From Alphaproteobacteria bacterium (lineage in GTDB: Bacteria; Pseudomonadota; Alphaproteobacteria; GCA-2731375): a DNA stretch of 64,000 nt. The translations under genes were made by a program, and so were the position numbers. The DNA lies in the NCBI GenBank assembly GCA_965225945.1, contig CBDDBZ010000038.1:498658-562657 (forward strand). The letters are read 5' to 3'. The notes beneath the pieces are model-generated. The model saw only the letters and a program-made list of their open reading frames with translations. It had not been told where the DNA came from and made no database searches. Shown here piece after piece: positions 7,650 to 64,000 of the stretch. Positions within the stretch are counted from its first letter, which is position 1. Each line of letters opens with the position of its first letter.

Positions 7650-9611
7650 TCAGACGTTGATGTCGAGTAGGCGATCCGTCGCCGTTCGACGAGCATCGCT
7701 CGCCGCGATCGTCGCCGCGCCACCGGTCTCGATGTCGCGGCCAGGCCGGCCACTCGGATCGTCTCCGGCGAAGCCATCGCCCTCGCGGCCTTCGGACTCC
7801 CCACGCAGGGAGAAACTCAGGCCGCCCGAGCCGGTATCCAGACCGGCATCCTGCAACGCCTTCTCCAACAGGCGGGCATCGCGCTGCAGCAGCTCAAGAG
7901 TGTCGATCCGGTCCGCCGTGATCACCGCCAGCACCCGGCCGTCGAAGCCGATGTCGAGCTTGATGTCGACGCGTCCGAGTTCCGCCGGATGCAGCCGGAC
8001 GTTGATCCGCCTGAGGCCATCCTCGACACCCTGGGTGATCCGCGCCGCGACTTGAACCGTCGGTGGCGGTGGCGGCGCGGCCGGGCGTGTCGTGGCCGCG
8101 CCGAGGCGGCTCGCCGAATCGCTCGACGTGGCTTCCTGGGCCGGCCCGCCAGCCCCTTCGAGGTCGACCGCGAAGCCGCCCTCGCTCGCCAGCACGAGGC
8201 CGGCCGGGCGCGGGGCGAGGTCGGCGGTCGTCGCGGGAGCGCTCGACGGTGGCGGCGTCACGGTTTCGGTGAGCGGGGCCGCCGTCGGGTTGCCGCCGAC
8301 GCGTGTCGCGAGCCCGAGGGCGACCGATCGCATCGAGCTTGCGCCGGCGATTTGCGACACCGTCGCGGTCCCGTCCAGCATGCCCCAGACACCGCCGACA
8401 TGCGGGCGGGCGGAAGCTTCGGGCGCCGTGGCGGCCGATTGGATCGTGAGCCGAGTCCGCGCCGCCGGATCACCTCCGCTCTCGGTGGCGATCTCCGGTT
8501 CGACGGACAGGCCGAGCCCGATGTTCGGCGTCGCGATAGCCCGAGGTGCTACGCCGCTCGCCCGTGGCGCCGTGGCGACAAGAGGGGTGGGCGATGCGAC
8601 ATTCGGGTTTGGCGTCGCGCCGGCGAGCAAGGCAATCGGCGACGCAGCGGTCGGGTTCGGCGTCGCCCTGGCGAGCAAGGCAATCGGCGAGGCGGTGGTC
8701 GGGTTCGGTGTCGCGGCGGGGGGGCTTGCCGGCGCGGCCACGGCCGCCGGCGTTGCAGTGGCGAGCAAGGCAATCGGCGAGGCGGTGGTCGGGTTCGGCG
8801 TCGCGGCGGGGGGGCTTGCCGGCGCGGCCACGGCCGCCGGCGTCGCACTGGCGAGCAAGGCAATCGGCGAGGCGGTGGTCGGGTTCGGCGTCGCGGCGGG
8901 GGGGCTTGCCGGCGCGGCCACGGCCGCCGGCGTCGCCCTGGCGAGCAAGGCAATCGGCGAGGCGGTGGTCGGGTTCGGTGTCGCGGCGGGGGGGCTTGCC
9001 GGCGCGGCCACGGCCGCCGGCGTTGCAGTGGCGAGCAAGGCAATCGGCGAGGCGGTGGTCGGGTTCGGTGTCGCGGTGGGGGGGCTTGCCGGCACGGCCA
9101 CGGGTCTCGCGACGACGGGCAATGTCGACGTTGGCGTCGTCGTGGCATCCCTGGTGCCGTCGGCCGTGGGAGGCGCGGCGACAGGCGCGAGCGACGCCAT
9201 CGGTCCGGCGTCGACCGGCGCGGGAACGGCGATCCGACCCACGTCCTGGATGAGAGCGGGCGCGACGACGTTGACGATTGACGCTGGCGTCGGCACGGCG
9301 ATGACGATGGGCGTGGAGGGCTCGGCGACTCTGGTGGGAAACAGTCGGGTATCGAATACCCTCGCGTCACCGGACGCCGGCGGGGCACCGCCGTTCTCGG
9401 CACCGTCGGTTCGTGTTGGCGATGAAGCCGGACCGGCCGCCGTCTCGGAGCCTTCGATCAAGGTCGCAAAGCTTTCCGTAGTCTCTCCGTCCGCGCCGGC
9501 ACCTGAGCTTTCGCTCGGGATCCGCTCCGGGCCGGGTCGCGCGATCGACCCGGTGGTCGCCGGCGTCGGTGCCGTCGGTGTCGTCTGGGGAAGGGGAAGG
9601 GGCGCTGGCAT
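7650..9611 (-). CDS. fliK: Flagellar hook-length control protein FliK
   Basis: C-terminal VRLHPAELGRVDIKL...LLQRDARLLEKALQDAGL...LSFSLR; Pro/Ala/Thr-rich middle; start uncertain (9611 or 9713). Confidence 0.88.
   Translation of the reverse strand: MPAPLPLPQTTPTAPTPATTGSIARPGPERIPSESSGAGADGETTESFATLIEGSETAAGPASSPTRTDGAENGGAPPASGDARVFDTRLFPTRVAEPSTPIVIAVPTPASIVNVVAPALIQDVGRIAVPAPVDAGPMASLAPVAAPPTADGTRDATTTPTSTLPVVARPVAVPASPPTATPNPTTASPIALLATATPAAVAAPASPPAATPNPTTASPIALLARATPAAVAAPASPPAATPNPTTASPIALLASATPAAVAAPASPPAATPNPTTASPIALLATATPAAVAAPASPPAATPNPTTASPIALLARATPNPTAASPIALLAGATPNPNVASPTPLVATAPRASGVAPRAIATPNIGLGLSVEPEIATESGGDPAARTRLTIQSAATAPEASARPHVGGVWGMLDGTATVSQIAGASSMRSVALGLATRVGGNPTAAPLTETVTPPPSSAPATTADLAPRPAGLVLASEGGFAVDLEGAGGPAQEATSSDSASRLGAATTRPAAPPPPPTVQVAARITQGVEDGLRRINVRLHPAELGRVDIKLDIGFDGRVLAVITADRIDTLELLQRDARLLEKALQDAGLDTGSGGLSFSLRGESEGREGDGFAGDDPSGRPGRDIETGGAATIAASDARRTATDRLLDINV
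8671..9102. repeat. About 4.8 copies of a 90-bp (30-aa) in-frame tandem repeat in fliK
   Basis: gcgagcaaggcaatcggcga recurs at 8671, 8761, 8851, 8941 and 9031. Confidence 0.95.
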
Positions 9612-49777: not shown

Positions 49778-51010
49778 ATGTCATCGCTTTGGGATCGCGC
49801 GCGCGGCGACGGCGCGCGCGGGCGCGTACCGGTCACCATCCGTCGGAGGGTACACTGGGGAGACACGGACAGCGCCCAGATCGGCTACACCAGCGCCCTG
49901 GTCGATTTCGCCATCGAGGCGGCGCAGTACTGGTGGGAGGCGGTGCTCGACCAGAACTGGTATCGCCTCGGCGTCGAGCACGGCCTGGGTTCACCCATGG
50001 TCGCCATGAAGTTCGACTTCACCTCGCCGGTGCGCGCGGGCGAGCGGGTTGATCTCGTGGTCCGGCTGGAGAAGCTGGGGCGCGCCTCGCTCACGCTCCG
50101 GGTCGAGGCGCGCCATGTCGAGCGGGACGAGCCCGTGTTCACCGCCCGGCTCACCTCTTCGCTGGTCGACCGCGCGGGCCATCGCGCCGAACCCTTCCCC
50201 GAGGCCTGGCGGGCACGGATCGAGGGCCATGCGCGGGAATGCGAGCTCAGCCAGCGCGGCGTCAAGAGCATCGACGAGGTGCATGATTTTTGGTTCGGTT
50301 TGCCCGACGCGCCGGACTGGGGCGAGCCCAGGTTGCGCTGGTTCGGGCGCGACAAAAACCTCGATCCGGCGGATTTCGACCGCGAGATCGCCGAGAGCTT
50401 CACGGCGACCCACGCGGCGCTGATGGCCGGCGAGTTGGACCATTGGGTGGAGACGCCGAGCGGCGCGCTCGCCGCCGTGCTGGTGCTCGACCAGTTCTCC
50501 CGGCACATCTTCCGCGACACGGCCCAGGCCTATGCCAGCGACGAGAAGGCGCGCGGGATCGCGAAGAAGGCGCTCGACGCCGGCTTCGAGGAGGGCCTTC
50601 CGCCGCCGGTTCGAGCTTTCTTCTATCTCCCGCTGGAGCACAGCGAAGCGCTCTGCGATCAGCAGCGCTCCCTCACGCTGTTCGGAACCTTTCGCGGCAC
50701 CGAGCGGGGCGACAGGCAGTACCAGACCGCCCTCCGCCACCAGGGCGCGCGCGGGCTGAAATCATCGAACGTTTCGGCCGCTTTCCCCACCGCAACGCCG
50801 TCCTCGGCCGCGAAAGCACGGCCGAGGAATTGGCCTTCCTGGAGACGCCGAACTCGAGCTTCGGAAGCCCCGCGCGCCCTTGAAGAAATCATCGAACGTT
50901 TCGGCCGCTTTCCCCACCGCAACGCCGTCCTCGGCCGCGAAAGCACGGCCGAGGAATTGGCCTTCCTGGAGACGCCGAACTCGAGCTTCGGAAGCCCCGC
51001 GCGCCCTTGA
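49778..51010 (+). CDS. Acyl-CoA thioesterase (4HBT-like)-DUF924 fusion carrying a 141-nt in-frame insertion
   Basis: VHWGDTDSAQI thioesterase motif; LDQFSR.IFR, FFYLPLEHSE and IIERFGRFPHRN DUF924 motifs; 127-bp tandem duplication. Confidence 0.75.
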   Translation: MSSLWDRARGDGARGRVPVTIRRRVHWGDTDSAQIGYTSALVDFAIEAAQYWWEAVLDQNWYRLGVEHGLGSPMVAMKFDFTSPVRAGERVDLVVRLEKLGRASLTLRVEARHVERDEPVFTARLTSSLVDRAGHRAEPFPEAWRARIEGHARECELSQRGVKSIDEVHDFWFGLPDAPDWGEPRLRWFGRDKNLDPADFDREIAESFTATHAALMAGELDHWVETPSGALAAVLVLDQFSRHIFRDTAQAYASDEKARGIAKKALDAGFEEGLPPPVRAFFYLPLEHSEALCDQQRSLTLFGTFRGTERGDRQYQTALRHQGARGLKSSNVSAAFPTATPSSAAKARPRNWPSWRRRTRASEAPRALEEIIERFGRFPHRNAVLGRESTAEELAFLETPNSSFGSPARP

Positions 51011-51028
51011 AGCTCGATCCCGAACCTC

Positions 51029-51063
51029 GCCTCAATCCGCCTCAATCCGCCTCAATCCGCCTC
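51029..51063. repeat. 10-bp tandem repeat GCCTCAATCC x3.5
   Basis: Directly visible; spans the stop codon of the P1 peptidase gene. Confidence 0.85.
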
Positions 51064-56535: not shown

Positions 56536-57270
56536 TCAGGCCGGCGGGCCGCGTCGCTTCAGCCGCTTATAGAGGATCGGCACGCTGGACAGCAGCGCCA
56601 GCGCGACGAGAGGGCCGAAGACTTCCGGATTATAGACGATGCCCCAGTCGGGCTCGCCCCCCTGTTCGAAGATCCGACCGAAGCCGTTGCCGAGGCTGGC
56701 GTAGACGAAGGTTCCGGGGATGATCCCGAAGAAGGTCGCGATCGCGTACGTCGACAGCCTGATGCCCAGCAAGGCGGGCACCAGGTTGACGAGGAAGAAG
56801 GGGAAGAGCGGCACCAGCCGGAGGATCAACAGATAGCTCATGGCGTTCTCCGCGAAGCCGGCCTCCATCCGCTGGAGGGCCGGTCCCGCCCTGCGCCTGA
56901 GCAGGTCGGCGAAGGCGTGGCGCGCCGCCAGGAACAGCAGGCAAGCGCCCAGCGTCGCGGCGAAGACGACGACGCCGCCGCCGAGCCAGGTGCCGAAGAG
57001 AAAGCCGCCAACGGTGGTCAATAGCGAGCCGCCGGGCACCGAACAGGCGATGACGACGACATAAGTCAGGAAGAACAGCGCGACGGCGAGAACGCTCTGC
57101 GCGGCGACCCAGTCCTGCAAGACTTGGCGATGGGCGCGGAGCGTGTCGAAGTTGACGTAGCGGTGTCCACCGGCGGCGAAAAAGACCACGAGGCCCAGGA
57201 CGATCAGCGCGATCGGCAGGTATCGCTTGGCGGCGCCCACGCGGGCATCGCCGGACTCGGGAGTTGCCAT
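56536..57270 (-). CDS. TVP38/TMEM64 (SNARE-associated) membrane protein
   Basis: GGFLFG, LRLVPLFPFFLVN and GIIPGT motifs; likely start MATPES at 57270. Confidence 0.88.
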   Translation of the reverse strand: MATPESGDARVGAAKRYLPIALIVLGLVVFFAAGGHRYVNFDTLRAHRQVLQDWVAAQSVLAVALFFLTYVVVIACSVPGGSLLTTVGGFLFGTWLGGGVVVFAATLGACLLFLAARHAFADLLRRRAGPALQRMEAGFAENAMSYLLILRLVPLFPFFLVNLVPALLGIRLSTYAIATFFGIIPGTFVYASLGNGFGRIFEQGGEPDWGIVYNPEVFGPLVALALLSSVPILYKRLKRRGPPA

Positions 57271-57333
57271 CGTCGCGCCCTGCTCCCCCAATCTCCCCCC
57301 ACTATCGCCATGATGGGACGAGGGGCAAGGAAT

Positions 57334-57485
57334 GTTACGGTAGGAATGCGCATTGCTGCGCACCCCCCGCGGTTACGGTAGGAATGCGCATTGCTGCGCA
57401 CCCCCCGCGGTTACGGTAGGAATGCGCATTGCTGCGCACCCCCCGCGGTTACGGTAGGAATGCGCATTGCTGCGCACCCCCCGCG
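57334..57485 (-). repeat. Four exact 38-bp tandem repeats, each a group II intron domain VI/3' end
   Basis: Minus-strand unit CGCGGGGGGTGCGCAGCAATGCGCATTCCTACCGTAAC forms a hairpin with a GCAA loop, bulged A and terminal AC; units start at 57334, 57372, 57410 and 57448. Confidence 0.93.
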
Positions 57486-59366
57486 CAGATCCGGACGTGG
57501 TCGTTGAACCATCCGGCTCCTACCTCGGGTGCTTGACGGCAAACCGCTGGTCCGGCCATGGGTGGCGGATGGAGGCGCGTGGCCACAGGATTTCGGTCAT
57601 GCGCTCCAGTCGCTTCCAACTAAATCGGGCTCGCTGGGACCGGCGGCGTAGCGCCCGCATCCACCGGCGTTGCAGCCTGCGGAGGAACGCACGGATGAAC
57701 CGGCCTGACCCTGGGACGGCAAAGTAGTTGAGCCAGCCATTGCAGACTCGCCCCAGCCACCTACCAACTTCCCAGATGTCGTGGTGCCAGCGCTTGCGGA
57801 GCACCTCGTCGATGCGCGCCAGGGTCCTGTTGACCCGTTTGGCGACCGGTTTGCGACCAAGCCGAAAGCGTCCTCTCAGGGTCGTCGTGCAATAGTGCGT
57901 GAGGCCCAGAAAGTCGAAAGTCTCCGGCTTGCCCACCCCGCGCTGGCGCCGGTTCAAATCCGCGAACCGGCCAAACTCCACGAGGCGGGTCTTGTCCTGG
58001 TGGAGGCTGAGACCGAACCGGGCCAGCCTCTCCCGAACGTCGCGGAGGTACCGCTCCGCATCCCGCTTGTGTTGGAACCCGACAACGATATCGTCAGCGT
58101 AACGGACGATGATCGCTTCGCCATCCGGGACGTTCGGGCGCCATTTCTTGTGGAACCACAAGTCGAGCACGTAATGCAGGAACACGTTCGCCAAGACGGG
58201 GGAGACTATTGCCCCCTGCGGCGTGCCCATACCCGTATCTGCCCATGACCCACTCTCTATGACGCCGGCGTTCAGCCATTTCCAGATCAGACGGATGACC
58301 CGCCTGTCTCCGATGCGGTGCTCTAGGAACGTGATCAACCAATCCCGCGGGATCGTGTCGAAGTACGCCCGGAGGTCTGCATCGACTATCCAGCTGACCT
58401 TGCGCCGTTTTATCCCGAAGGCCAGGGCATCGAGCGCATCGTGCGCCCCCCGCCCCGGTCGGAACCCGTAGCTGAAGCCAAGAAACACCACCTCGTAGAT
58501 CGGTGTCAGGATCACATCCACAACCGCCTTCTGGACGACCTTGTCCTCCAGCGCCGCGATCCCGAGCGGTCGTGTCCCCCCGTCCGGCTTGGGTATCTCT
58601 ACCCGCCGAACCGGCGGCGCCCGGTACGCTCCCCCTCTGTGCAGGCGCCGGTGCAGGTCGAGCAGGCGCTCATCCAGACCCTCGCCGTACATGTCCCACG
58701 TAACGCCGTCGACACCGGCTGCTGCGTCCTTCTTCAATGCGAAGTAGGCCGCACCGAGCGCGTCCGGCGTAATGTGGTGGAAGAGCGCAGTGAGACGTTC
58801 CTTCGGGTTTCTCTCTGCAGCTTTCCGTATCCGGGCCGCCGCCTGTGGCACGCTTACCCGACACTGTGTTCGGCGCGTGCTTTGGCAATCCGGATTCCCC
58901 TTGGTTGAGGCCCTTTCCTCCGGCGACTCCGCAGAAGCTCGCGCTCCCTTGTTCGCCGCCCTCACAGGTCGTACGGCCTCATCCGACTTCTTCAAACCGT
59001 TCATCATAGGCTTCGGTTTTCTCCATTCCCTACGCGGCCCCTTTACGACAACCGGGGCAGTTTGAAGACCTCCCAGGGTCCCAACAGAAGGCGTGCGAAC
59101 GTGCATGGGTTCTCTGACACCGCGGGGCTCGCCGACATCTCACCAAAACGACGCCTGCGATATTGCCTTCGACCGATCTGAAAGCCTCGGCACCCCGGAC
59201 CATCGCTTTTACGGTGCTCAATAGCCCTGCCCATCCATGCCGCTACCGACGCTTCGCCTGCCCCCTCACGGGAGCCAACGCACGGCTCGCGGAGAAACGT
59301 GGTTCGGTTACTCCTTCGTTCCGGGGGACTTGCACCCCCTACCTTCTGCCAGTTCGCCTGGCGCAC
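57448..59366 (-). mobile_element. Group II intron, innermost intact copy (1919 nt)
   Basis: 5' GTGCG at 59366; D5 GAGCCGGATGGTTCAACGACCACGTCCGGATC at 57519-57488; D6 ending in AC at 57448. Confidence 0.93.
57520..59007 (-). CDS. ltrA: Group II intron reverse transcriptase/maturase, no endonuclease domain (copy 1)
   Basis: AAGVDG, IPKPDG..RPLGI, SYGFRPGR, GTPQG, RYADD and FDFLG motifs; likely start MMNGLKKSD at 59007. Confidence 0.95.
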   Translation of the reverse strand: MMNGLKKSDEAVRPVRAANKGARASAESPEERASTKGNPDCQSTRRTQCRVSVPQAAARIRKAAERNPKERLTALFHHITPDALGAAYFALKKDAAAGVDGVTWDMYGEGLDERLLDLHRRLHRGGAYRAPPVRRVEIPKPDGGTRPLGIAALEDKVVQKAVVDVILTPIYEVVFLGFSYGFRPGRGAHDALDALAFGIKRRKVSWIVDADLRAYFDTIPRDWLITFLEHRIGDRRVIRLIWKWLNAGVIESGSWADTGMGTPQGAIVSPVLANVFLHYVLDLWFHKKWRPNVPDGEAIIVRYADDIVVGFQHKRDAERYLRDVRERLARFGLSLHQDKTRLVEFGRFADLNRRQRGVGKPETFDFLGLTHYCTTTLRGRFRLGRKPVAKRVNRTLARIDEVLRKRWHHDIWEVGRWLGRVCNGWLNYFAVPGSGRFIRAFLRRLQRRWMRALRRRSQRARFSWKRLERMTEILWPRASIRHPWPDQRFAVKHPR

Positions 59367-61247
59367 CAGATCCGGACGTGGTCGTTGAACCATCCGGCTC
59401 CTACCTCGGGTGCTTGACGGCAAACCGCTGGTCCGGCCATGGGTGGCGGATGGAGGCGCGTGGCCACAGGATTTCGGTCATGCGCTCCAGTCGCTTCCAA
59501 CTAAATCGGGCTCGCTGGGACCGGCGGCGTAGCGCCCGCATCCACCGGCGTTGCAGCCTGCGGAGGAACGCACGGATGAACCGGCCTGACCCTGGGACGG
59601 CAAAGTAGTTGAGCCAGCCATTGCAGACTCGCCCCAGCCACCTACCAACTTCCCAGATGTCGTGGTGCCAGCGCTTGCGGAGCACCTCGTCGATGCGCGC
59701 CAGGGTCCTGTTGACCCGTTTGGCGACCGGTTTGCGACCAAGCCGAAAGCGTCCTCTCAGGGTCGTCGTGCAATAGTGCGTGAGGCCCAGAAAGTCGAAA
59801 GTCTCCGGCTTGCCCACCCCGCGCTGGCGCCGGTTCAAATCCGCGAACCGGCCAAACTCCACGAGGCGGGTCTTGTCCTGGTGGAGGCTGAGACCGAACC
59901 GGGCCAGCCTCTCCCGAACGTCGCGGAGGTACCGCTCCGCATCCCGCTTGTGTTGGAACCCGACAACGATATCGTCAGCGTAACGGACGATGATCGCTTC
60001 GCCATCCGGGACGTTCGGGCGCCATTTCTTGTGGAACCACAAGTCGAGCACGTAATGCAGGAACACGTTCGCCAAGACGGGGGAGACTATTGCCCCCTGC
60101 GGCGTGCCCATACCCGTATCTGCCCATGACCCACTCTCTATGACGCCGGCGTTCAGCCATTTCCAGATCAGACGGATGACCCGCCTGTCTCCGATGCGGT
60201 GCTCTAGGAACGTGATCAACCAATCCCGCGGGATCGTGTCGAAGTACGCCCGGAGGTCTGCATCGACTATCCAGCTGACCTTGCGCCGTTTTATCCCGAA
60301 GGCCAGGGCATCGAGCGCATCGTGCGCCCCCCGCCCCGGTCGGAACCCGTAGCTGAAGCCAAGAAACACCACCTCGTAGATCGGTGTCAGGATCACATCC
60401 ACAACCGCCTTCTGGACGACCTTGTCCTCCAGCGCCGCGATCCCGAGCGGTCGTGTCCCCCCGTCCGGCTTGGGTATCTCTACCCGCCGAACCGGCGGCG
60501 CCCGGTACGCTCCCCCTCTGTGCAGGCGCCGGTGCAGGTCGAGCAGGCGCTCATCCAGACCCTCGCCGTACATGTCCCACGTAACGCCGTCGACACCGGC
60601 TGCTGCGTCCTTCTTCAATGCGAAGTAGGCCGCACCGAGCGCGTCCGGCGTAATGTGGTGGAAGAGCGCAGTGAGACGTTCCTTCGGGTTTCTCTCTGCA
60701 GCTTTCCGTATCCGGGCCGCCGCCTGTGGCACGCTTACCCGACACTGTGTTCGGCGCGTGCTTTGGCAATCCGGATTCCCCTTGGTTGAGGCCCTTTCCT
60801 CCGGCGACTCCGCAGAAGCTCGCGCTCCCTTGTTCGCCGCCCTCACAGGTCGTACGGCCTCATCCGACTTCTTCAAACCGTTCATCATAGGCTTCGGTTT
60901 TCTCCATTCCCTACGCGGCCCCTTTACGACAACCGGGGCAGTTTGAAGACCTCCCAGGGTCCCAACAGAAGGCGTGCGAACGTGCATGGGTTCTCTGACA
61001 CCGCGGGGCTCGCCGACATCTCACCAAAACGACGCCTGCGATATTGCCTTCGACCGATCTGAAAGCCTCGGCACCCCGGACCATCGCTTTTACGGTGCTC
61101 AATAGCCCTGCCCATCCATGCCGCTACCGACGCTTCGCCTGCCCCCTCACGGGAGCCAACGCACGGCTCGCGGAGAAACGTGGTTCGGTTACTCCTTCGT
61201 TCCGGGGGACTTGCACCCCCTACCTTCTGCCAGTTCGCCTGGCGCAC
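59367..61247 (-). mobile_element. Group II intron, 5' end to D5 (copy 2, interrupted by copy 1)
   Basis: 1881-bp repeat; D5 end GGATCTG joined directly to GTGCG of the next copy. Confidence 0.92.
59401..60888 (-). CDS. ltrA: Group II intron RT/maturase (copy 2)
   Basis: Translation identical to copy 1. Confidence 0.95.
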   Translation of the reverse strand: MMNGLKKSDEAVRPVRAANKGARASAESPEERASTKGNPDCQSTRRTQCRVSVPQAAARIRKAAERNPKERLTALFHHITPDALGAAYFALKKDAAAGVDGVTWDMYGEGLDERLLDLHRRLHRGGAYRAPPVRRVEIPKPDGGTRPLGIAALEDKVVQKAVVDVILTPIYEVVFLGFSYGFRPGRGAHDALDALAFGIKRRKVSWIVDADLRAYFDTIPRDWLITFLEHRIGDRRVIRLIWKWLNAGVIESGSWADTGMGTPQGAIVSPVLANVFLHYVLDLWFHKKWRPNVPDGEAIIVRYADDIVVGFQHKRDAERYLRDVRERLARFGLSLHQDKTRLVEFGRFADLNRRQRGVGKPETFDFLGLTHYCTTTLRGRFRLGRKPVAKRVNRTLARIDEVLRKRWHHDIWEVGRWLGRVCNGWLNYFAVPGSGRFIRAFLRRLQRRWMRALRRRSQRARFSWKRLERMTEILWPRASIRHPWPDQRFAVKHPR

Positions 61248-63128
61248 CAGATCCGGACGTGGTCGTTGAACCATCCGGCTCCTACCTCGGGTGCTTGACG
61301 GCAAACCGCTGGTCCGGCCATGGGTGGCGGATGGAGGCGCGTGGCCACAGGATTTCGGTCATGCGCTCCAGTCGCTTCCAACTAAATCGGGCTCGCTGGG
61401 ACCGGCGGCGTAGCGCCCGCATCCACCGGCGTTGCAGCCTGCGGAGGAACGCACGGATGAACCGGCCTGACCCTGGGACGGCAAAGTAGTTGAGCCAGCC
61501 ATTGCAGACTCGCCCCAGCCACCTACCAACTTCCCAGATGTCGTGGTGCCAGCGCTTGCGGAGCACCTCGTCGATGCGCGCCAGGGTCCTGTTGACCCGT
61601 TTGGCGACCGGTTTGCGACCAAGCCGAAAGCGTCCTCTCAGGGTCGTCGTGCAATAGTGCGTGAGGCCCAGAAAGTCGAAAGTCTCCGGCTTGCCCACCC
61701 CGCGCTGGCGCCGGTTCAAATCCGCGAACCGGCCAAACTCCACGAGGCGGGTCTTGTCCTGGTGGAGGCTGAGACCGAACCGGGCCAGCCTCTCCCGAAC
61801 GTCGCGGAGGTACCGCTCCGCATCCCGCTTGTGTTGGAACCCGACAACGATATCGTCAGCGTAACGGACGATGATCGCTTCGCCATCCGGGACGTTCGGG
61901 CGCCATTTCTTGTGGAACCACAAGTCGAGCACGTAATGCAGGAACACGTTCGCCAAGACGGGGGAGACTATTGCCCCCTGCGGCGTGCCCATACCCGTAT
62001 CTGCCCATGACCCACTCTCTATGACGCCGGCGTTCAGCCATTTCCAGATCAGACGGATGACCCGCCTGTCTCCGATGCGGTGCTCTAGGAACGTGATCAA
62101 CCAATCCCGCGGGATCGTGTCGAAGTACGCCCGGAGGTCTGCATCGACTATCCAGCTGACCTTGCGCCGTTTTATCCCGAAGGCCAGGGCATCGAGCGCA
62201 TCGTGCGCCCCCCGCCCCGGTCGGAACCCGTAGCTGAAGCCAAGAAACACCACCTCGTAGATCGGTGTCAGGATCACATCCACAACCGCCTTCTGGACGA
62301 CCTTGTCCTCCAGCGCCGCGATCCCGAGCGGTCGTGTCCCCCCGTCCGGCTTGGGTATCTCTACCCGCCGAACCGGCGGCGCCCGGTACGCTCCCCCTCT
62401 GTGCAGGCGCCGGTGCAGGTCGAGCAGGCGCTCATCCAGACCCTCGCCGTACATGTCCCACGTAACGCCGTCGACACCGGCTGCTGCGTCCTTCTTCAAT
62501 GCGAAGTAGGCCGCACCGAGCGCGTCCGGCGTAATGTGGTGGAAGAGCGCAGTGAGACGTTCCTTCGGGTTTCTCTCTGCAGCTTTCCGTATCCGGGCCG
62601 CCGCCTGTGGCACGCTTACCCGACACTGTGTTCGGCGCGTGCTTTGGCAATCCGGATTCCCCTTGGTTGAGGCCCTTTCCTCCGGCGACTCCGCAGAAGC
62701 TCGCGCTCCCTTGTTCGCCGCCCTCACAGGTCGTACGGCCTCATCCGACTTCTTCAAACCGTTCATCATAGGCTTCGGTTTTCTCCATTCCCTACGCGGC
62801 CCCTTTACGACAACCGGGGCAGTTTGAAGACCTCCCAGGGTCCCAACAGAAGGCGTGCGAACGTGCATGGGTTCTCTGACACCGCGGGGCTCGCCGACAT
62901 CTCACCAAAACGACGCCTGCGATATTGCCTTCGACCGATCTGAAAGCCTCGGCACCCCGGACCATCGCTTTTACGGTGCTCAATAGCCCTGCCCATCCAT
63001 GCCGCTACCGACGCTTCGCCTGCCCCCTCACGGGAGCCAACGCACGGCTCGCGGAGAAACGTGGTTCGGTTACTCCTTCGTTCCGGGGGACTTGCACCCC
63101 CTACCTTCTGCCAGTTCGCCTGGCGCAC
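61248..63128 (-). mobile_element. Group II intron, 5' end to D5 (copy 3)
   Basis: 1881-bp repeat with the same junctions. Confidence 0.92.
61282..62769 (-). CDS. ltrA: Group II intron RT/maturase (copy 3)
   Basis: Translation identical to copy 1. Confidence 0.95.
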   Translation of the reverse strand: MMNGLKKSDEAVRPVRAANKGARASAESPEERASTKGNPDCQSTRRTQCRVSVPQAAARIRKAAERNPKERLTALFHHITPDALGAAYFALKKDAAAGVDGVTWDMYGEGLDERLLDLHRRLHRGGAYRAPPVRRVEIPKPDGGTRPLGIAALEDKVVQKAVVDVILTPIYEVVFLGFSYGFRPGRGAHDALDALAFGIKRRKVSWIVDADLRAYFDTIPRDWLITFLEHRIGDRRVIRLIWKWLNAGVIESGSWADTGMGTPQGAIVSPVLANVFLHYVLDLWFHKKWRPNVPDGEAIIVRYADDIVVGFQHKRDAERYLRDVRERLARFGLSLHQDKTRLVEFGRFADLNRRQRGVGKPETFDFLGLTHYCTTTLRGRFRLGRKPVAKRVNRTLARIDEVLRKRWHHDIWEVGRWLGRVCNGWLNYFAVPGSGRFIRAFLRRLQRRWMRALRRRSQRARFSWKRLERMTEILWPRASIRHPWPDQRFAVKHPR

Positions 63129-64000
63129 CAGATCCGGACGTGGTCGTTGAACCATCCGGCTCCTACCTCGGGTGCTTGACGGCAAACCGCTGGTCCGGCC
63201 ATGGGTGGCGGATGGAGGCGCGTGGCCACAGGATTTCGGTCATGCGCTCCAGTCGCTTCCAACTAAATCGGGCTCGCTGGGACCGGCGGCGTAGCGCCCG
63301 CATCCACCGGCGTTGCAGCCTGCGGAGGAACGCACGGATGAACCGGCCTGACCCTGGGACGGCAAAGTAGTTGAGCCAGCCATTGCAGACTCGCCCCAGC
63401 CACCTACCAACTTCCCAGATGTCGTGGTGCCAGCGCTTGCGGAGCACCTCGTCGATGCGCGCCAGGGTCCTGTTGACCCGTTTGGCGACCGGTTTGCGAC
63501 CAAGCCGAAAGCGTCCTCTCAGGGTCGTCGTGCAATAGTGCGTGAGGCCCAGAAAGTCGAAAGTCTCCGGCTTGCCCACCCCGCGCTGGCGCCGGTTCAA
63601 ATCCGCGAACCGGCCAAACTCCACGAGGCGGGTCTTGTCCTGGTGGAGGCTGAGACCGAACCGGGCCAGCCTCTCCCGAACGTCGCGGAGGTACCGCTCC
63701 GCATCCCGCTTGTGTTGGAACCCGACAACGATATCGTCAGCGTAACGGACGATGATCGCTTCGCCATCCGGGACGTTCGGGCGCCATTTCTTGTGGAACC
63801 ACAAGTCGAGCACGTAATGCAGGAACACGTTCGCCAAGACGGGGGAGACTATTGCCCCCTGCGGCGTGCCCATACCCGTATCTGCCCATGACCCACTCTC
63901 TATGACGCCGGCGTTCAGCCATTTCCAGATCAGACGGATGACCCGCCTGTCTCCGATGCGGTGCTCTAGGAACGTGATCAACCAATCCCGCGGGATCGTG
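63129..64000 (-). mobile_element. Group II intron copy 4 (partial; RT ORF 3' half from 63163 to the window edge)
   Basis: Same sequence continues to the window edge. Confidence 0.9.

Follow-up and report, generated by a model that had tools for sequence, protein, structure and literature searches.

The window analysed here is a 64,000-nt stretch of the genome of an Alphaproteobacteria bacterium (GenBank assembly GCA_965225945.1, contig CBDDBZ010000038.1, positions 498,658 to 562,657), and all unlabeled positions below are counted from its first base. The source genome, G000, is a 39-contig draft with 5.58% contamination, and the window lies on its contig C38. The last part of the window is occupied, on the minus strand, by a nested array of copies of one mobile group II intron, which we call the CAGAUC intron after the hexamer of its exon-binding site 1 (EBS1). 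One intron is 1919 nt long and consists of two parts that are found apart in the array, a 1881-nt unit A and a 38-nt unit B. Unit A runs from domain I to domain 5 (D5) plus the bases UG and repeats without mismatch from 57486 to the end of the window, and all intron copies within the window are 100% identical. Unit B opens with the last base (C) of J5/6, the linker between D5 and domain 6 (D6). D6 itself follows, with its GCAA loop and bulged A, and ...GUAAC forms the 3' end. Every A unit opens with GUGCG and closes with GAUCUG, and every B unit has C first and GUAAC last; GAUCUG stands directly before the GUGCG of the next A unit or before the first 38-nt B unit. The boundaries between the two units cannot be shifted because A has the form G...G and B the form C...C, so that their first and last bases differ. 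The array comprises at least 3.46 A units and four B units, which places the intron at least four deep in its own D5-D6 linker (Table 1).

Table 1. Features of the intron array in the window (EBS, exon-binding site; IBS, intron-binding site; IEP, intron-encoded protein; RT, reverse transcriptase).
Feature	Position	Strand	Remarks
Nested intron array	57334..64000	minus	read 5' to 3': A (cut) A A A B B B B; the contig end cuts the array at 64000
Unit A, innermost	57486..59366	minus	5' splice site GUGCG at 59366, domains I-IV and IEP gene, D5, first two J5/6 bases (UG)
Further A copies	59367-61247 and 61248-63128	minus	
Cut A copy	63129-64000	minus	intron positions 1010-1881 only
Four 38-nt B units	57334..57485	minus	perfect repeats: 57448-57485 (innermost), 57410-57447, 57372-57409, 57334-57371
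Domain I, match to Rfam RF02005 (group-II-D1D4-6)	59108..59332	minus	full length (1-225), 163.7 bits; gathering score 49
Domain I, other RF02005 matches (three copies in all)	60989-61213 and 62870-63094	minus	
EBS1 hairpin of domain I	59161..59195	minus	from RF02005 alignment and fold; repeated at +1881 and +3762
EBS1, CAGAUC	59175..59180	minus	also 61056-61061 and 62937-62942
Likely EBS2 of the class, internal loop UAAAAGCGAUGGU	59199..59211	minus	5-10 bp complementarity to exon -7..-17 in several relatives
EBS3 candidate, A, intron position 252	59115	minus	pairs with exon +1, U preferred
IEP gene, RT and maturase X	57520..59106	minus	stop codon abuts D5; true start codon uncertain, later ATG at 59007
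D5, 32 nt	57488..57519	minus	AGC triad, 2-nt bulge, CAAC loop, G.A pair where the Rfam consensus has G.U
IBS1 of the self-site, GAUCUG	59367..59372	minus	last 4 nt of the host copy's D5 plus UG of J5/6
Further GAUCUG copies	57486-57491, 61248-61253, 63129-63134	minus	
Outer 3' exon	56536..57333	minus	63-nt spacer, then gene for a VTT-domain (DedA-like) membrane protein, ATG at 57270, same orientation

The element has the parts of a mobile group II intron, that is, a domain I, the features of the splice site, D5 and D6, an IEP, and a pairing between EBS1 and intron-binding site 1 (IBS1). Its 5' end, GUGCG at 59366-59362, fits the group II consensus GUGYG. The alignment of D5 and D6 to RF00029 (57448-57521) scored 35.4 bits, under the gathering score of 40, with an E-value of 1.1e-4, and the fold of this region has a z-score of -4.08. 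The G.A pair in D5 is the norm among relatives of the intron class. In the RF00029 alignment the bulged A of D6 sits 8 nt from the intron 3' end, and this A (57455 in the innermost B unit) is the predicted branch point. The IEP matches the profiles RVT_1 (1.1e-36) and GIIM (2.1e-4), and it reaches 344.3 bits against the NCBIfam model of group II RT/maturases, TIGR04416, where the cut-off is 300. RVT_1 and GIIM are the only domains matched and the open reading frame (ORF) stops directly before D5, leaving the protein without an endonuclease domain. The 32-nt D5 and the missing endonuclease domain reported by an earlier note on this DNA are thus both seen.

The same note had tentatively placed the intron in bacterial class E. 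The endonuclease-less IEP and the small IIB-like ribozyme are features like those of groups IIE and IIF, and the intron is at most a candidate member of the class. In the loop CGUUUUGGUGAG that follows the EBS1 hairpin, UUUGGU can pair, as judged by eye, with ACCGAA of the 5' hairpin loop, making it a candidate alpha', and one change relative to the Rfam consensus in this pairing is compensatory (RF02005 alignment, again by eye). The D5 of the CAGAUC intron has a non-GNRA CAAC loop, or alternatively a 6-nt loop, and many relatives have 5-nt loops like UUAGC or UUAAC. According to excerpts of Nagy et al. (2013, PMC3753933), both an alpha' in the terminal loop of a hairpin in Id3 and a 5-nt D5 loop in place of the GNRA tetraloop are class E/F traits; the concept of class F is disputed by Toro and Martinez-Abarca (2013, PMC3552965). 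We therefore describe the ribozyme as RF02005-type, with features that resemble those of IIE/IIF introns.

The evidence for self-targeting begins with the EBS1 hairpin. The minus strand from 59195 to 59161 reads GGGUGCCGAGGCUUUCAGAUCGGUCGAAGGCAAUA and forms an outer stem UGCC/GGCA, an inner stem GGCU/GGUC and an 8-nt loop, UUCAGAUC. The minimum free energy (MFE) of this fold is -9.4 kcal/mol with a z-score of -0.97, so that energy alone is not significant. CAGAUC stands in the loop where the earlier note had read it, at plus-strand positions 59175-59180, and the GAUCUG found before every nested insertion point, at each A|A and each A|B junction, is its exact Watson-Crick complement, as that note had claimed. 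By simple arithmetic, a fixed hexamer matches a fixed site by chance once in 4096 cases, and an 8-nt loop allows three windows. The RF02005 covariance model aligns the CAGAUC loop to a conserved hairpin of domain I.

Covariation with the exons points to the same loop. Genome contigs were scanned with the IEP, which gave 79 loci whose proteins were 99 to 50% identical, and the register was fixed as GCCGA, four stem bases, two bases and then the hexamer. The hairpin pattern was absent in 4 of the 64 domain-I matches, and 51 distinct exon/loop pairs were left. Pairing is complete over the six positions in 29 of these (including 8 with a single G.U) and covers five positions in 10; the other 12 are worse, several of the latter having ill-defined 5' ends. 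When a single pair was kept for each EBS1 hexamer, 16 of 29 were perfect, whereas 2000 shuffled trials averaged 0.7 and never exceeded 5. Loops of other sequence, in G000 and in its congener G028, likewise fit the 5' exons of their own introns when read in this register: UCUGCU pairs with AGCAGA, GGGUC with GACCC (two sites) and UCCAUA with UAUGGA. The covariance model and the exon covariation together thus put EBS1 at the loop claimed by the earlier note and, on this evidence, the CAGAUC loop is the true EBS1. At two loci of another lineage, with EBS1 CAGACU (L144 and L146), the 5' exons form hairpins of which the 3' arm is IBS1 (GGUCUG) and the 5' arm mimics EBS1.

We then turned to the target sites. 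The 5' exon of the window array, which the earlier note had proposed to inspect from plus strand 65010 onward, cannot be read because contig C38 ends inside the array at window base 64000, and native exons of other copies were used in its place. Drawn from three genomes and excluding self-nested junctions, the pool comprises 18 5' exons and 20 3' exons, all of them independent. The native 5' exons end in G(A/G)UCUG, both at 3 non-intron sites of G000 and at 15 further independent sites; over the 18 sites, positions -6 to -1 read G(A13/G5)UCUG with two single exceptions. Position -7 is G in 14 of the 18 (background 26%, p=6e-6). EBS1 lies in the expected loop and native exons are complementary to it, and because both agree, self-targeting through EBS1, as the earlier note proposed, fits.

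Downstream of the insertion point, exon position +1 is T at 15 of 20 sites (background 9%, p=2e-12) and C at none of the 20. In 39 of 43 distinct relatives the base at intron position 252 can form a Watson-Crick pair with +1, and each of the four bases is represented there; the next best column reaches 28 of 43. By covariation position 252, an A in this intron, is EBS3, and an A there fits the preference of the CAGAUC lineage for T at exon +1. The earlier note had correctly observed that +1 differs between the nested sites (C) and the outer site (A, 57333); the difference is explained by EBS3, since A252 prefers U and the C of the self-site is off-consensus. The internal loop at 59199-59211 is probably the EBS2 of the class, and relatives with EBS2-like complementarity include L122, L111, L107, L136 and L098. 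The EBS2-matching string ATCGC occurs upstream of 4 of the 18 CAGAUC-lineage sites against a background of 2.8% (p=0.0014). The statement of the earlier note that no convincing EBS2 exists holds for the self-site, where no pairing is found in register. The weak use of EBS2 agrees with the dispensability of EBS2-IBS2 in the splicing of IIE/IIF introns, as excerpted from PMC3753933.

We also considered the hairpin beside the site, since the earlier note had suggested that D5 may help in targeting as terminator hairpins do for class C introns. The 40 nt upstream of 14 non-intron sites from the three genomes (one of which, in C31, was taken one base out of register) were folded with DNA parameters and compared with 400 control GG[GA]TCTG sites. 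No excess of upstream hairpins was found at these 14 sites (mean MFE -6.0 versus -5.2 in the controls, p=0.15), and the suggestion is not borne out. One of the native sites lies inside the orfA of an IS3-type transposase.

The target of the CAGAUC intron is the linker of its whole class. Among 44 distinct D5-linker sequences of relatives, 32 have GATCTG, 33 have T as the next base and 24 have both, so that GAUCUG|U is, from these sequences, the consensus for the D5 end and J5/6 of the class. Because CAGAUC and A252 together read GAUCUG|U, both EBS1 and EBS3 match this consensus, from which the own linker of the lineage departs only at +1 (C). The earlier note had described EBS1 as complementary to the intron's own D5 3' end; the match is exact, but the matched sequence is the class consensus and not peculiar to its own D5.

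Residence in other introns is in fact observed. In four genomes, introns of the CAGAUC lineage occupy the J5/6 of hosts that belong to three other intron types. A 67%-related intron (host type 2) is invaded at C24 and C37; a 5'-truncated remnant that keeps only the X domain, D5 and D6 (host type 3) is invaded at C34, at L071 in G028 and at L077 in a third genome; a 70%-related host intron is invaded in G028 (L063); and an 82%-related branch of the lineage sits in a GAACC-type host D5 in a fourth genome (L082-L085). In addition, a more distantly related intron of the RF02005 type is present on two metagenome contigs, L182 and L219 (109 and 118 bits); its homologous loop is also CAGAUC, and it is inserted after a host D5-UG. 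In L219 the host U-D6 follows the 3' end of this intron, and the full arrangement of host D5-UG, intron and U-D6 is found at C34 as well as at L219. A search of metagenome contigs with an 18-nt junction string matched more than 119 stretches, of which 80 loci were viewed. Among these 80, L182 and L219 are the only intron-in-intron cases; the other 78 are chance matches without a group II D5 before the junction, many of them in what seem to be conserved protein-coding genes. The string, GUCCGGAUCUG followed by GUGCGCC, recurs in unrelated metagenome contigs (L156-L235), several of which share upstream sequence as in a conserved coding gene. Because such chance matches are common, the string is not specific for nesting.

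Occupancy in G000 shows the same tendency. The genome has 8685 G[GA]TCTG sites, of which 14 are occupied by an intron 5' end, and 11 of these 14 are J5/6 linkers (8 self, 2 of host type 2 and 1 of host type 3) although J5/6 linkers make up 23 of the 8685 sites; the 14 occupied junctions are not all independent events. The excess at linkers needs a cause beyond the hexamer, for which G at -7, U at +1, the sequence of D6, the hairpin, and proximity of ribonucleoprotein (RNP) and donor are candidates.

Several observations on the hosts may be recorded here. The D5 hairpins of some hosts (the C34 remnant, L071, L077 and the hosts of L082-L085) open with GAACC rather than GAGCC, and the third D5 pair of host type 3 is A.G where the CAGAUC intron has G.A, a swapped purine-purine pair. 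On the minus strand of C24 (L034/L154), another intron of the RF02005 type (168.9 bits) starts 6 bases past the 3' end of the CAGAUC intron, behind the host-D6 sequence UGCGGG; its hexamer in the EBS1 register, CCCGUU, pairs with 5 of the 6 bases of UGCGGG, and C33 near 304400-304650 is alike. The conserved start of D6 may thus be the target of a second lineage. At C37:368924-374326 the RT gene of the 67%-related host is split by an insert of about 5.4 kb, and the locus is a pile-up of mobile elements.

The junctions of the arrays bear the pattern of nesting. G000 holds about eleven loci of the CAGAUC intron, and the junctions counted there comprise 8 A|A, 10 A|B and 16 B|B, with no B|A among them. 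The absence of head-to-tail B|A junctions fits nesting at the A|B junction only. As in a nested array, the A|A and B|B junctions are exact, and deletion of an inner A+B restores A|B. The runs of B units are 1, 1, 1, 1, at least 2, 3, 3, 4, 5 and 6 long, and the A runs are often shorter; we infer that A units were lost by recombination between the 1.9-kb direct repeats.

In a chromosome-level record of a metagenome-assembled genome, the 82%-related intron forms head-to-tail B|A arrays at one host D5 site (L082 and L085), with domain I matches at about 2143, 4061 and 4791 and a 730-nt derivative without ORF among the units. EBS1 occurs in that genome as CAGAUC and CCGAUC, and the linker as GAUCUG and GAUCGG. 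Re-insertion at an occupied site therefore also happens in the wider family. Within G000, the outermost array copy at C31:260175 begins with UUGCG instead of GUGCG, a change that, if real and not an error of sequencing, would be expected to prevent its splicing. Intron copies at C38:144739-146156 and beyond 146452 (L020; the same flank is found at C33:307776) are interrupted by an IS3-family element with rve domains, and copies at L020 also adjoin an IS256-family transposase gene (Transposase_mut). In two different arrays the end of an insertion sequence abuts the intron ORF, at positions 821 and 845.

The pathway we propose is as follows. A particle of intron lariat and IEP would pair EBS1 with GAUCUG and A252 with +1, and would then reverse-splice into DNA. 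Because EBS1 and EBS3 read GAUCUG|U, this RNP would insert at genomic G(A/G)UCUG|U sites, with a strong preference for the D5-D6 linker of resident members of the class, its own copies included. Without an endonuclease, priming would be taken from replication forks; the use of replication-fork primers by endonuclease-less introns is described in excerpts of Zimmerly and Semper (2015, PMC4424553). The GC skew around the 11 loci is weak and of mixed sign, and no strand bias relative to replication can be deduced from it. Insertion at a resident A|B junction would split D5 from D6 and recreate one intact A|B junction, so that repeated retrohoming would build A^n B^n arrays in the manner of Russian dolls. 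Homologous recombination between the 1.9-kb A repeats may later remove A units, and the 38-nt B units would stay as a record of insertion. The transcript of an array would be spliced from the inside out, an outer copy only after removal of the inner one, with each removal regenerating a complete intron.

Taken together, these data make it highly probable that the CAGAUC intron is an active endonuclease-less intron whose EBS1 and EBS3 match the D5-linker consensus of its class, and that repeated homing into introns of its own class builds the arrays. Several points weigh against this interpretation. The numbers of A and B units disagree, with one A and three B at C34 and C39 and two A and one B at C37, and later recombination or assembly collapse is therefore needed to account for them. 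Arrays run off the contig end in three cases (C31, C35 and C38), and for the window array the outer 5' exon is unread. The self-site has C at +1, which is found at none of the 20 independent sites. The congener G028, a genome of 5 contigs, has a 98% identical version of the intron, and a third genome (L072-L076) has one with 99% IEP identity, but none of the 6 full-length copies in the former or the 5 copies in the latter is self-nested; self-nesting is found only in G000. Since near-identical copies in two other genomes are not self-nested, complementarity is not sufficient. A difference in the ribozyme was considered as the cause and rejected, because the RNA part differs between G000 and G028 only at position 241, which gives no explanation, the remaining differences lying in the ORF. 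The exact 35-nt A|A junction had no match in the metagenome contig collection, and among the short contigs of public sequencing runs no contig bridging A|A was listed and no joints were reported, which leaves the array neither confirmed nor refuted by them. In four of these runs (X1, X15, X16 and X19), over 57150-59450, the intron is covered about 35 to 470 times as deeply as the flank, with depths summed over all organisms per run. In X16 and X19, contigs of 7.5 and 8.7 kb lose their match precisely at the intron/exon border, 57333, and may represent an intron-free allele with an empty site. No empty site was found in G028, where the flank matches only from 88 nt off the junction, at 77% identity.

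A broader proposal, tentative and in our view somewhat doubtful, is that a guild of RF02005-type introns is hyperparasitic, with EBS1 and EBS3 tuned to the near-invariant GAUCUG|U of their own class, and that deviations in their own linkers confer partial self-immunity.

It is unlikely, though worth serious weighing, that the self-match is incidental, so that the real homes of the intron are genomic GGAUCUG|U sites and the linkers of other introns, and the arrays are a local by-product, for instance of a burst of activity or of RNPs at work beside their donor. The disfavoured C at +1 of the self-site, the 11 copies in two other genomes without self-nesting, and the 14 non-intron sites known across the three genomes all speak for it. 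Within G000, however, the 16 B|B junctions in 5 contigs show that self-insertion took place at least 16 times, whereas 3 non-intron 5' junctions are occupied there; moreover, the same pairing through EBS1 is at work in either case, which makes this a difference of emphasis and not of process.

We consider it very improbable that the arrays are an assembly artefact or a plain tandem amplification, produced by faulty assembly of a repeat with many copies or by unequal crossing-over independent of retrohoming. The identity of the window copies, the contigs that end inside arrays, the unequal A and B counts, the draft state and contamination of the genome, and a C33 locus with a chimeric-looking stretch and a 36-nt B unit are what such an origin might produce. 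An order of A^n then B^m without B|A at 6 loci, however, is the prediction of nesting and not of whole-element duplication, and every junction falls exactly at the EBS1-complementary hexamer. The same linker insertions also occur in the 5-contig genome of G028, in other genome records and in two metagenome contigs, and unequal crossing-over alters counts but requires a first nested event. Least probable of all is an origin at the RNA level, in which a lariat reverse-splices at J5/6 into another intron RNA, abundant and single-stranded there, and the chimera is reverse-transcribed and recombines with a resident copy: it would account for the excess of intron targets over 8659 other hexamer sites and for the tolerated mismatch at +1, but it has no direct evidence and requires an extra recombination step, and insertion into the 5'-truncated, probably untranscribed host 3 and into non-intron DNA indicates that DNA targeting works.

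The homing described here was compared with known systems from excerpts of the papers cited. In Methanosarcina acetivorans, repeated homing to specific sites within other group II introns has produced nests of up to five introns (Dai and Zimmerly 2003, via PMC4424553 and Mohr 2010); such a target is a "perpetual homing site", at which insertions are balanced by recombinational deletion at no cost to host genes (PMC4424553). The CAGAUC intron is alike in its repeated site-specific homing into group II introns and in the recombinational deletion proposed for it; the archaeal target, to go by the title of the 2003 paper, lies in the ORFs of related introns (domain IV), whereas here it is the D5-D6 linker, a conserved ribozyme motif, and the nested copies are identical. 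In the twintrons of Thermosynechococcus elongatus (Mohr et al. 2010, PMC2882425), EBS/IBS pairing likewise guides insertion, but the insertion falls in domain IV, between the first and second ATG of the IEP ORF, and the inner introns are ORF-less, differ from the outer one and form a single nesting level. The intron cox1i1149g2 of Lycopodiaceae mitochondria (Zumkeller et al. 2020, PMC7049729) also has a copy inside its own kind, having "jumped into itself"; that insertion happened once and long ago, at position 652, its EBS-IBS pairing is weak and the inner copy is non-splicing, whereas the self-insertions of the CAGAUC intron are iterated and recent (100% identical copies) and pair EBS1 with IBS1 at six of six positions.

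The IIE/IIF introns (Nagy et al. 2013, PMC3753933) share with the CAGAUC intron the small IIB-like ribozyme and the endonuclease-less IEP. Their splicing depends on EBS1-IBS1 and can dispense with EBS2-IBS2, which fits a target set by EBS1 and EBS3 with little input from EBS2; residence in other introns is not reported for them in the excerpts of that paper. Class C introns (PMC1702495) are likewise endonuclease-less, have a target beside a hairpin and show several insertions at one kind of structure. In the CAGAUC intron, by contrast, EBS1 is by covariation a full 6 nt, the ribozyme matches RF02005, the non-intron targets have no hairpin excess, and IBS1 overlaps the 3' strand of the hairpin, where the class C site follows the hairpin. 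The 6-nt EBS1, the lack of hairpin excess (p=0.15) and the RF02005 match speak against a hairpin-guided class C identity. Earlier work thus covers introns that home into other introns and become nested, twintrons of one level at a conserved ORF site, and a single degenerate self-insertion in plant mitochondria. The literature searched contained no report of homing into a D5-D6 linker, of an EBS1/EBS3 pair matched to a class-wide catalytic consensus, or of iterated nesting of identical copies.

Apart from the array, the window contains a 127-nt tandem duplication at 50745-50998 (96-100% identical), six copies of a 90-nt period at 8568-9197, and a 10-nt repeat of 3.6 copies at 51028-51063.

As a rule, group II introns keep harm low by settling in intergenic DNA or in other mobile elements. 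The CAGAUC intron homes to the catalytic part that is most conserved in its own class, a linker target that is present wherever relatives are and is costless to the host. If the guild of hyperparasitic introns is real, other introns and the intron's own copies would be safe-haven sites that cannot mutate away without losing catalysis, the self-immunity deviations would be the +1 C in the CAGAUC lineage and GGUUCUG in the L182/L219 lineage, and nested arrays would multiply the RNP output per transcript. The runs of D6 units would serve as readable counters of past insertions, and homing of this kind explains how introns pile up into kilobase arrays in bacterial genomes. The arrays offer a natural system for the study of sequential splicing of multiply nested introns, and the covariation map of EBS1, EBS3 and probably EBS2 for a little-studied ribozyme class would be useful for retargeting.

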